DNA from: Minisyncoccia bacterium
GTDB taxonomy: Bacteria > Patescibacteriota > Minisyncoccia > Phycocordibacterales > UBA9973
Assembly (NCBI GenBank): GCA_049317285.1
Contig: JBMOIO010000001.1
Span: 20,388-84,387 of the forward strand
Length of the DNA: 64,000 bases
Direction of reading: 5' to 3'
In this document: piece by piece, positions 31,684 to 33,563 of the stretch
Layout: every line of letters starts with the position of its first letter
Position numbering within the stretch: position 1 is the stretch's first letter
Program-made: the position numbers and the translations under genes
Notes under the pieces: generated by a model
Seen by the model: the letters and a program-made list of their open reading frames with translations, nothing else
Told to the model about the DNA's origin: nothing
Database searches by the model: none

Positions 31684-31884
31684 TACCAGTAAAGTATATC
31701 AACTTTCTTTTGCCTCAGTCTACCACTCATACGCTCTATAGATACGTACGAGAGGATTTGTGTGCTTTAACCCTTGCACAGGGAGTATGTATTAAGTCAC
31801 ATACCACAACCTTTTTCCGACTTGCGCCGGTTCAACCGTATCAATCTTTTCATCATCCACGAGGGACAATGAGAAAACATCTCA

Positions 31885-33563
31885 ATTTGAGTTAATCCAC
31901 GACCAGCTTCCGCTAGCCGTGCCTTGTTACGACTTATTCCCTGTCACCGATCTTACCGTAGTCCCTCCGTATGGAGAGCCTTCGGGTACTACCGGCTCCC
32001 TTGAATTGACGGGCGGTGAGTACAAGACTCGAGAACGTATTCACCGCAGTTTGGCTGACCTGCGATTACTAGCGATTCCAACTTCAAGGAGTCGAGTTGC
32101 AGACTCCTATCCGAACTAGGGCCGCCTTTTAGGATTGGCTTCGGATCGCTCCGTTGCGACCTATTGTAGCGACCATTGTATTATGTGTGTGGCCCCAGAT
32201 ATCAAAGGGACATGCTGACCTGGCGTCATCCTCTCCTTCCTCCCAGCCCGAAAACTACATCGGTTCCAGACGCTCAGTGGAAGATCAAAATATAAATACT
32301 TTGATTTTCCACAGAACGCCCGGCATCTCCGGAGACTCAGTGGAGTGAAAAAATATAAATATTTCTTCACTCTACAGAATCTCCGAGGATATAGTCTTTG
32401 GGCTGGGCAGTCTTGCCTGACACTTGTAACAGACAACAAGGGTTGCGCTCGTTAGCCCACTTAAGGGAACAGTTCAAACCACGAGCTGACGACGGCCATG
32501 CATCACCTGCTGAGATGTCTTGCGAGGGCCCAGTTTCTTGGGATTTCATCTCAGTTTCAAACCTGGGTAAGGTTCTTCGTTTACCTACGAATTAAACCAC
32601 ATAATCCACCGCTTGTGCGAGTCCCCGTCTATTCCTTTGAGTTTTAGCCTTGCGGCCGTACTTCCCAGGCGCTTCACTTAACGCGTTAGCTTCGCCTCTC
32701 AGAGGGTCGATACTCCGAAAAGCTAGTGAAGATCGTTTAGGGCGTGGACTACTGGGGTATCTAATCCCATTCGCTACCCACGCTTTCGTGTTTCAGTGTC
32801 AGTAATGTGCCAGTAAGCTGCCTTCGCTTTTGGTGTTCCCCATGATATCAACGGATTTCACCCCTACACCATGAGTTCCGCTTACCTCTCACATACTCAA
32901 GCATTGCCGTTTCGTACGCGGGTCCGAGGTTAAGCCCCGGGATTTCACATACGACTAACAACGCCACCTACACACCCTTTACGCCCAATAATTCCGGATA
33001 ACGCTCGGGGCCTCTGTATTACCGCTCCTGCTGGCACAGAGTTAGGAGCCCCTTATTCATGAGGTACCGTCAATATACTTCTTCCCTCATAAAAGATCTT
33101 TACGTGGCGAACCACTTCATCAATCACGCGGCGTCGCTCCATCAGACTTTCGTCCATTGTGGAAGATTCTCGACTGCAGCCACCCGTAGGTGTATGGGCC
33201 GTGTCTCAGTCCCATCGGTGGGGGTCAGGCTCTCACCTCCCCTAGGCGTCATAGCCTTGGTAGTCCATTACACTGCCAACTAGCTGATACCCCGCAGGCT
33301 GTTTCTCAAGCGATAAATCTTTACCCCGGAGGGACTATCGTGTATTAGTCCACCTTTCGGTGAATTATTCACGACTTGAGAGTACATACCTACGTGTTAC
33401 TACCTCGTCTGCCACTAACCAGCGTCTTTTTTCAAAATTTCGTTTCGTTTTGTATTGCTACTCCACTCCACTTGATCGATCCAAAAGACAAGGTCCGTTC
33501 GACTTGCATGCCTTATCCACGCCGCCAGCGTTCATCCTGAGCTAGGATCAAACTCTTCTTAAA
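31885..33563 (-). rRNA. rrs: 16S ribosomal RNA (~1.68 kb; no linked 23S/5S in window)
   Basis: Reverse complement contains AGAGTTTGATCCTAGCTCAGGATGAACGCTGGCGG (5' end), AAACTCAAAGGAATAGACGG (907 region), AAGTCGTAACAAGG (3' end); forward strand shows the complements. Confidence 0.85.
32275..32377 (-). repeat. two tandem similar hairpins (shared AUAUAAAUA loop) forming a ~100-nt expansion insertion inside the 16S gene
   Basis: cagtggaagatcaaaATATAAATActttgattttccacag and cagtggagtgaaaaaATATAAATAtttcttcactctacag, inserted between the conserved CATCCTCTCCTTCCTCC and AAGGGTTGCGCTCGTT blocks (about 190 nt versus about 70 in E. coli). Confidence 0.6.

Follow-up and report, generated by a model that had tools for sequence, protein, structure and literature searches.

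In the textbook account, bacteria select start sites by pairing between the Shine-Dalgarno (SD) motif of an mRNA and the anti-SD of the 16S ribosomal RNA (rRNA); the anti-SD itself is rarely lost. Mycobacterium, Streptomyces, Deinococcus, and the GeneMarkS-2 "group C" genomes are rich in leaderless mRNAs, and in the ribosome structure of Flavobacterium johnsoniae the anti-SD is reportedly kept but masked by ribosomal proteins. Closest to the case considered here, the anti-SD motif was found in just 48% of Parcubacteria in a study that reported its detection rate and the correlation of that rate with uL1 loss (Tsurumaki et al. 2022, RNA 28:1041, PMC9297842), and 128 organisms without CCUCCU lack SD motifs, no matching variant SD ever having been found (Amin et al. 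2018, PMC6107228). Here, we analyze a stretch of 64,000 nucleotides (nt) from a Minisyncoccia bacterium (contig JBMOIO010000001.1; the whole stretch is hereafter "the window"), which includes a 16S rRNA gene whose anti-SD has been replaced by another sequence. We consider it quite probable that the anti-SD was lost in a Nomurabacteria-like clade of the Paceibacteria/Minisyncoccia, and that start codons in this clade are chosen independently of SD pairing by leaderless, coupled, and SD-less-leader routes.

The locus resembles each of these systems in part. It shares with the Parcubacteria subgroup of Tsurumaki et al. the same superphylum/class-level group, the missing CCUCCU at the 16S 3′ end, a reduced ribosome of the type found in the Candidate Phyla Radiation (CPR), and a short bS1; that paper is without the replacement sequence, its conservation, SD usage, and initiation mode, all of which are described here. 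The organisms of Amin et al. 2018 and Lim et al. 2012 (Chryseobacterium, Elizabethkingia, Blattabacterium, Mycoplasma, Carsonella) likewise combine anti-SD loss with an absence of SD and of any compensating variant SD, but most of them belong to the Bacteroidetes or are endosymbionts or parasites with reduced genomes, whereas here one fixed tail spans a CPR clade as deep as an order or family, in which a promoter box beside the start codon is the main alternative signal. Such a −10 box ~6–8 nt before the AUG, within extended −10 promoters, is also seen in the leaderless-rich bacteria, yet in these the canonical anti-SD persists and many genes still rely on SD, while here the anti-SD is gone and SD motifs are at background. 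The lack of SD across the genome, with other mRNA features relied on instead, recalls the SD-independent initiation of Bacteroidetes and Flavobacteria; unlike their masked anti-SD, however, the sequence itself is replaced.

An earlier note on this DNA, made from the sequence alone, had stressed that loss of the anti-SD is much rarer than mere low SD usage. This is correct in general, but the case is not new, since an earlier paper had reported the loss for a subgroup of Parcubacteria (PMC9297842). More broadly, because Tsurumaki et al. and Amin et al. reported the loss and the SD absence, the core finding (anti-SD loss in Parcubacteria, and absence of SD in bacteria without an anti-SD) is already known. 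By contrast, the clade-wide fixed tail with its CUCA/UGAG hairpin, the leaderless-plus-coupled architecture, and the covarying trailer RNA appear to be undescribed in the searchable literature, and a search for work linking leaderless mRNAs with CPR, Parcubacteria, or Patescibacteria found no relevant paper.

The 16S rRNA gene and the elements at its two ends are as follows.

31885-33563, minus strand: 16S rRNA gene (Rfam SSU_rRNA_bacteria, RF00177; 1355.8 bits, model positions 1-1533)
31898-31921, minus strand: intact helix 45, CACGGCUAGC-GGAA-GCUGGUCGUG, from the covariance-model alignment
31888-31894, minus strand: anti-SD-equivalent positions, UAACUCA in place of CACCUCC, from the residue-by-residue alignment
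31879-31897, minus strand: conserved 3′ tail GAUUAACUCAAAUUGAGAU, in place of GAUCACCUCCUUA, from the clade comparison; conservation ends at 31879
33741-33768, minus strand: 16S promoter, sigma-70-type TTGACT-N-TATAAT, by sequence reading

This gene is full-length and apparently functional, with its own promoter and a processing helix; its 1679 nt exceed the 1533-position model through insertions, for example one of ~60 nt near helix 6. Directly after helix 45, which is identical or nearly identical in every clade member, the window reads GGAUUAACUCAAAUUGAGAU, compared to the usual bacterial GGAUCACCUCCUUA. A search restricted to the 3′ part aligned the end with maximal posterior probability, setting model GcugGAUcACCUCCUUu against window CGUGGAUUAACUCAAAU, and the tail past helix 45, GAUUAACUCAAAU, is without CCUCC(U). 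The replacement of the CCUCC core by AACUCA after an intact helix 45, as first claimed in the earlier note, therefore stands, on the strength of the covariance-model alignment, 43 species, and independent assemblies. So does its claim that no anti-SD lies further downstream: no CCUCC occurs in the ~175-nt trailer between the 16S and the DUF192 promoter, which we both read and folded, and the few CCUC-like trailer fragments are not kept in relatives. Because the trailer up to the processing helix is without CCUCC and these fragments are unconserved, processing cannot expose a hidden anti-SD.

Next, we evaluated how far the altered tail extends across taxa. When one genome for each GTDB species was searched for 16S genes that end in GGAT[CT]A[AC]CTCA, 84 loci were obtained, 43 of which carried the tail GGATTAACTCA. 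All 43 shared a single helix-45 sequence type and were labeled Nomurabacteria, Paceibacterota, or Minisyncoccia, apart from a few evidently wrong automatic labels. Their 16S rRNAs are 84–95% identical to that of the window, which makes this a clade roughly of family-to-order depth. Across 41 distinct sequences, the 20-nt tail was invariant in 37, and the other 4 differed only by the length of a 2–3-nt loop. Similarly, GGATTAACTCAAATTGAGAT directly followed helix 45 in all syntenic loci recovered from NCBI, ENA, JGI, and Logan assemblies, i.e., loci with a DUF192 protein 54–77% identical to that of the window; the window's own DUF192 protein is identical to one listed by NCBI as "MAG: Minisyncoccia bacterium", and its relatives carry the names Candidatus Paceibacterota and Parcubacteria. 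The window organism and the altered-tail clade thus fall in the Parcubacteria/Paceibacteria (Minisyncoccia, CPR). Taken together, the same tail in 43 GTDB species, its near-invariance, and its recurrence in independent assemblies argue that it is real, heritable, and under purifying selection. Separately, several third-party-annotation titles of metagenome-assembled genomes (uncultured Gammaproteobacteria, Candidatus Saccharibacteria, Chlamydiae) conflict with a Paceibacteria/CPR-type 16S; the loci concerned (L022, L023, L028, L030, L031, L048, and several clade loci) look like mislabelled bins.

Loss of the anti-SD was matched by an absence of SD motifs upstream of genes. For this analysis we covered the 64-kb window and ~370 kb of relatives, and applied the same, deliberately crude pipeline to all sets: non-overlapping open reading frames (ORFs) of at least 100 amino acids (aa), with the first ATG as start. 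We counted 4-mers (GGAG, GAGG, or AGGA beginning at −17 to −6) and 5-mers (a 5-mer SD core at −20 to −8), using the same count in the far-upstream region as control.

Window, 51 genes: 4-mer 5.9% (control 7.8%), 5-mer 3.9% (control 3.9%)
Altered-tail clade loci, 190 genes: 4-mer 5.3% (control 12.6%), 5-mer 1.6% (control 5.8%)
E. coli K-12, first 50 kb, 39 genes: 4-mer 43.6% (control 5.1%), 5-mer 20.5% (control 2.6%)
CPR contigs with the same helix 45 and a canonical GGAUCACCUCCUUUCUA tail, 52 genes: 4-mer 19.2% (control 9.6%), 5-mer 17.3% (control 3.8%)

Neither the window nor its relatives showed SD enrichment over background, and the 5-mer frequency of the clade differed from that of the canonical-tail CPR contigs (Fisher p = 7e-5). 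The latter, drawn from the metagenome scan, have obvious AAGGAGG-type sites; at 75–78% 16S identity to the window, their lineages are distant CPR relatives rather than sisters. Together with E. coli K-12 they replaced controls that became too small once rRNA was masked (CPR CCUCA lineages, gammaproteobacteria, Sulfolobales, Rhodothermales), while the more distant DUF192 homologues P0074 and P0105 were unusable for want of DNA or of a neighboring 16S. There is also no new SD in the clade: the 20 nt before gene starts formed no more stable duplexes with the observed tail (13-nt and 19-nt versions) than did far-upstream or coding sequence, and no k-mer complementary to the tail was positionally enriched upstream of starts in a 5-mer enrichment analysis.

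At finer scale, we curated 55 gene starts in the window from Pfam domain boundaries, ortholog lengths in relatives, and sequence. An SD-core 4-mer at spacing 4–12 preceded just two of them, secA (GAGG) and a murC-like gene (AGGA, spacing 4). The earlier note had sampled starts without SD and singled out a GAGGT at secA as the lone weak case; the curated set bears this out and adds the murC-like gene. At secA, the GAGG lies 5 nt from the ATG, and since it is placed between the gene's own −10 box TGGTAAAAT and the ATG, this GAGGT would fall at or before the transcription start. Of the 55 starts, 54 were ATG as scored, and the remaining gene, pyk, starts with ATG at 9722-9720.

What precedes many of these starts instead is a promoter box. 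The most enriched k-mers just upstream were ATAAT, TATAA, TATAC, and ATACT, and TATACT occurred 44 times in the window vs 19 expected. In 23% of cases in the window, TATACT was followed at a distance of 5–9 nt by an ATG that begins an ORF of 80 aa or more, compared to 2% for permuted hexamers (11-fold), and the clade loci showed the same pattern (ATG-initiated ORF after TATACT in 9.1% vs 1.15% for permuted hexamers). A −10-like hexamer stood 4–13 nt upstream of 31 of the 55 curated starts, 26 of these 31 being strong matches by manual reading, with a modal box-to-ATG spacing of exactly 6 nt (13 starts). About half of the curated starts have an extended −10 box (TGnTAtAcT) 6–12 nt before the ATG, and the TG at −15/−14 before the hexamer, i.e., the extended −10 signature, was present in 16 of 29 promoters vs 6.6% of random positions. 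The following starts illustrate the layout.

31683-31700, minus strand: DUF192 start, leaderless-type: TGATATACT, 9 nt, ATG (31683-31681)
8623-8640, minus strand: hpf start, leaderless-type: TGATATACT, 6 nt, ATG
43960-43977, minus strand: smc start, leaderless-type: TGGTATACT, 6 nt, ATG
55516-55530, minus strand: pilin gene start, TATACT exactly 6 nt upstream, codon fixed by the prepilin leader MKNRGFTLIE
56056-56073, minus strand: second pilin gene, same layout: TGTTATACT, 6 nt, ATG

The prepilin leader MKNRGFTLIE fixes two start codons independently, and both have TATACT exactly 6 nt before them. At sigma-70 promoters, transcription begins ~7 nt after the −10 hexamer, so a 6-nt spacing would put the A of AUG at +1, and spacings of 9–12 nt would leave leaders of 2–6 nt, too short for an SD. 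We infer transcription start positions from this geometry; a box next to the ATG is, in sequence terms, the signature of leaderless mRNAs. The leaderless-like TATAAT boxes that the earlier note reported at several small genes are confirmed, although the box is not confined to small genes.

Some of these loci have features of their own. Three genes on the minus strand (7773-8267, 54994-55518, 55537-56058) resemble type IV pilin genes and carry N-terminal methylation motifs, one of them starting 1 nt past the ribosome hibernation factor gene hpf (8269-8625). The divergent genes murB (35694-36704, minus strand) and HTH-murA (36733-38286, plus strand) are separated by a 28-nt perfect palindrome, ATGTATATATCATATATGATATATACAT, so that identical sequence precedes the two start codons, with a TATGAT box 8 nt ahead of the ATG in either direction; in the murA product, a helix-turn-helix (HTH) domain is fused to the N-terminus of the EPSP-synthase-fold enzyme.

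A second group of starts, ~11 of 55 (~20%), overlaps or abuts the preceding ORF.

15397-15401, plus strand: junction of a VTT-domain gene and a DUF2127 gene, TAATG overlap
15881-15884, plus strand: junction of DUF2127 and rsmE, ATGA overlap

Similarly, lepB and hisS overlap by 8 nt, hisS and def are 4 nt apart, and def and fmt are 1 nt apart. Overall, the overlapping or abutting genes are hisS, def, fmt, the pilin gene after hpf, DUF2127, rsmE, uppP, two mur ligase genes, an MFS transporter gene, and a NUDIX gene. Such an arrangement suggests termination-reinitiation coupling, a mechanism that we infer from gene spacing.

With its anti-SD replaced, the ribosome of this clade would no longer pick start codons via SD pairing. 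The first genes of transcription units would use extended −10 promoters (TGnTAtAcT) near the ATG, giving mRNAs that begin at or a few nt from the AUG; downstream operon genes that overlap or abut the prior stop (ATGA, TAATG, or gaps of at most 4 nt) would probably be reached by termination-reinitiation coupling, and a minority of genes would have short A/U-rich leaders without SD. The tail itself has not decayed but is fixed as GGAUUAACUCAAAUUGAGAU, probably since the residual CUC(A) pairs with the adjoining UGAG, in a mini-hairpin that might serve either the precursor or the mature 3′ end.

This mini-hairpin and the RNA downstream of it form a series of structured elements, listed here with the leader strand of the processing helix and the RNase III gene.

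31881-31891, minus strand: mini-hairpin CUCA-AAU-UGAG, the degenerate anti-SD with its complement directly downstream (RNAalifold)
31723-31878, minus strand: structured 16S trailer, with two variable hairpins, a conserved linker GAUUGAUACGGUUGA (31846-31832), then a structured domain
~31723-31805, minus strand: covarying trailer domain of ~85 nt, hairpin / H-type pseudoknot / hairpin
31703-31723, minus strand: 3′ strand of the processing helix at the trailer end, pairing with leader 33586-33605
33586-33605, minus strand: 5′ strand of the processing helix, a 20-nt stretch in the 16S leader
44100-44792, minus strand: rnc (RNase III), Pfam Ribonuclease_3 + dsrm

Both arms of the mini-hairpin (free energy −0.7 to −1.8 kcal/mol) are invariant, and the four variant tails alter loop length alone. 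In Firmicutes, the anti-SD forms a hairpin with a complement just past the 16S 3′ end (CCUCCUUUCUAAGGA). Comparable elements occur in other CPR: among 17 distinct canonical CPR tails, CUCC-N6-7-GGAG was present in 6 and CCUC-N5-GAGG in 1 more, and the CPR CCUCA group has CCUC-AUUUA-GAGG. As in these hairpins, residues at the anti-SD position pair here with a 4-nt complement 3–7 nt downstream, but the innermost pair is A-U rather than C-G and the 5′ arm cannot pair with an SD. The window mini-hairpin therefore looks like the same CPR element with its innermost C-G changed to A-U, and once SD pairing had become dispensable, selection may have kept the hairpin rather than CCUCC. Conservation of the tail reaches 3 nt past the length of the canonical 17-nt tail of other CPR lineages.

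The trailer domain beyond is supported by covariation: across 29 species, 98.2% of cells were paired vs 28–49% when the alignment was slid, 13 pairs were changed on both sides, and 0 of 500 shuffles reached the observed value. No Rfam family matched at E ≤ 1 over 31640-31900. Like the 16S, this domain is enclosed by the leader/trailer helix (−27.7 kcal/mol), in which compensatory changes keep the pairing in other species. Leader/trailer pairing is the usual long-range processing helix, for which RNase III would likely be the nuclease.

Several observations weigh against the preferred reading or limit its reach. The mini-hairpin has little thermodynamic stability and, with both arms invariant, lacks covariation in the clade. 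About 14 of the 55 genes follow neither the leaderless nor the coupled pattern; about a dozen, among them an S1-domain gene, pyk, nrdA, and rnc, have leaders without SD or ambiguous starts. The S1-domain gene is itself a candidate for the short bS1, in line with the 3–4 S1 domains of CPR bS1 proteins (PMC9297842).

2424-3569, plus strand: S1-domain protein gene, at least 3 S1 domains, short CPR-type bS1 candidate

In addition, transcription starts and the mature 16S 3′ end were deduced from sequence, and gene starts come from simple rules plus manual curation rather than from a trained gene finder. Coverage comprised parts of genomes rather than whole ones, and the window organism is represented by one section of its genome, so that a second rRNA operon could lie elsewhere.

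The alternatives differ mainly in what they make of the tail and of this limited coverage. The tail may persist in the mature rRNA, where the CUCA-AAU-UGAG hairpin, perhaps with the trailer, would fill the platform site of the SD/anti-SD helix as a built-in mimic or a determinant for leaderless initiation, a possibility that would add to anti-SD loss without excluding it. The 20-nt block invariant in 37 of 41 distinct tails across 84–95% 16S identity, hairpin arms kept though loop length varies, conservation continuing 3 nt beyond the canonical 17-nt CPR tail, and an adjoining covarying RNA within the same processing helix all speak for a functional tail. However, the hairpin reaches just −0.7 to −1.8 kcal/mol and lacks covariation within the clade, the downstream complement in canonical-tail CPR lies beyond the conserved mature tail, i.e., in discarded trailer, and CPR rRNAs are generally reduced in size (PMC9297842); on balance we regard this role as doubtful. 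More speculative and less probable still is that the tail, alone or with the hairpin/pseudoknot domain, is kept on the mature subunit as a new 3′-terminal structure at the mRNA exit/platform site. If so, the retained structure could pre-fill the SD-helix site or help capture leaderless mRNAs, and would amount to a novel architecture by which bacteria initiate without SD.

The other explanations deny that pairing was lost, or that the tail is genuine. A real anti-SD might be supplied from elsewhere, either because processing or splicing uncovers a CCUCC further downstream or because a second rRNA operon with a canonical tail serves initiation, given that introns and insertions are frequent in CPR 16S genes (PMC12641178) and that a single window of the genome was available. 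Yet no CCUCC occurs from the tail to the processing helix and the CCUC-like fragments are unconserved, helix 45 and the tail align continuously to the covariance model, a canonical anti-SD would be without a pairing partner since the mRNAs are without SD enrichment, and the one metagenome-assembled genome with two matching contigs (L038 and L065, both JADZEV01) has the altered tail on both; this explanation is very unlikely. No more probable is a co-evolved pair in which an mRNA motif complementary to UUAACUCAAAU, e.g., UGAGUU, replaces GGAGG. Strong conservation of the new tail would fit, as would the over-representation near starts of TAATC, the complement of GAUUA; but TAATC is scattered from −22 to −5, mostly within ATAATC −10 boxes, the observed tail pairs no more stably with sequence before starts than with far-upstream or coding sequence, and Amin et al. 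(PMC6107228) found no variant anti-SD with a matching variant SD. Finally, rRNA genes are frequent sites of breaks and chimeras in metagenome assemblies, and several Logan contigs stop inside helix 45, as might be expected if the tail were an assembly or sequencing artefact, or the 16S copy a pseudogene. Yet the tail is identical across assemblies from NCBI, ENA, JGI, and Logan and across the representatives of 43 species, and the 16S carrying it is full-length and high-scoring, with a promoter of its own and a processing helix that covaries. The artefact/pseudogene candidate has next to no probability and is effectively refuted by the independent assemblies.

Turning to the surroundings of the gene, tRNA, 23S, and 5S genes do not follow the 16S, which is unlinked from the 23S and 5S. 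As to uL1, the window contains no rplK-rplA region. The order 16S - DUF192 - nrdB - nrdA - RNase P RNA - DAO-family oxidoreductase - secA - dnaE is conserved clade-wide. Within it, the RNase P RNA (bacterial class A; 27602-27959, minus strand) was missed by the default scan at 99.5 bits, 0.5 under the Rfam gathering cut-off, and its syntenic copies in relatives score 108–116 bits.

Introns were found at two kinds of loci. A tRNA gene at ~10070-10706 (minus strand), missed by ARAGORN, has its anticodon loop split by a ~560-nt group I intron, the core of which is matched by Rfam at 10124-10415 (71.6 bits); the intron ORF (10309-10641) has a weak HNH match and is preceded by a TATACT box of its own, 9 nt from the ATG. 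The identity of the split tRNA varies with the splice junction, i.e., Asn(GUU), Thr(UGU), or His(GUG), as several junctions yield valid cloverleaves. Canonical-tail CPR 16S genes (L107/L114, L113/L122, L115/L116) contain group I and group II introns and long insertions, some near the 3′ end, and because these interrupt the genes, Rfam splits each 16S into several hits.

Overall, the window offers a clean natural example of a deep, species-rich CPR clade in which the anti-SD has been swapped for a strictly conserved sequence. What this analysis adds is a mechanism-level description. In practical terms, gene finders based on ribosome-binding-site models will misplace start codons in genomes of this clade, and its 16S 3′ ends will be mis-annotated. 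For the organisms themselves, gene expression is apparently built on leaderless transcripts and coupled ORFs.

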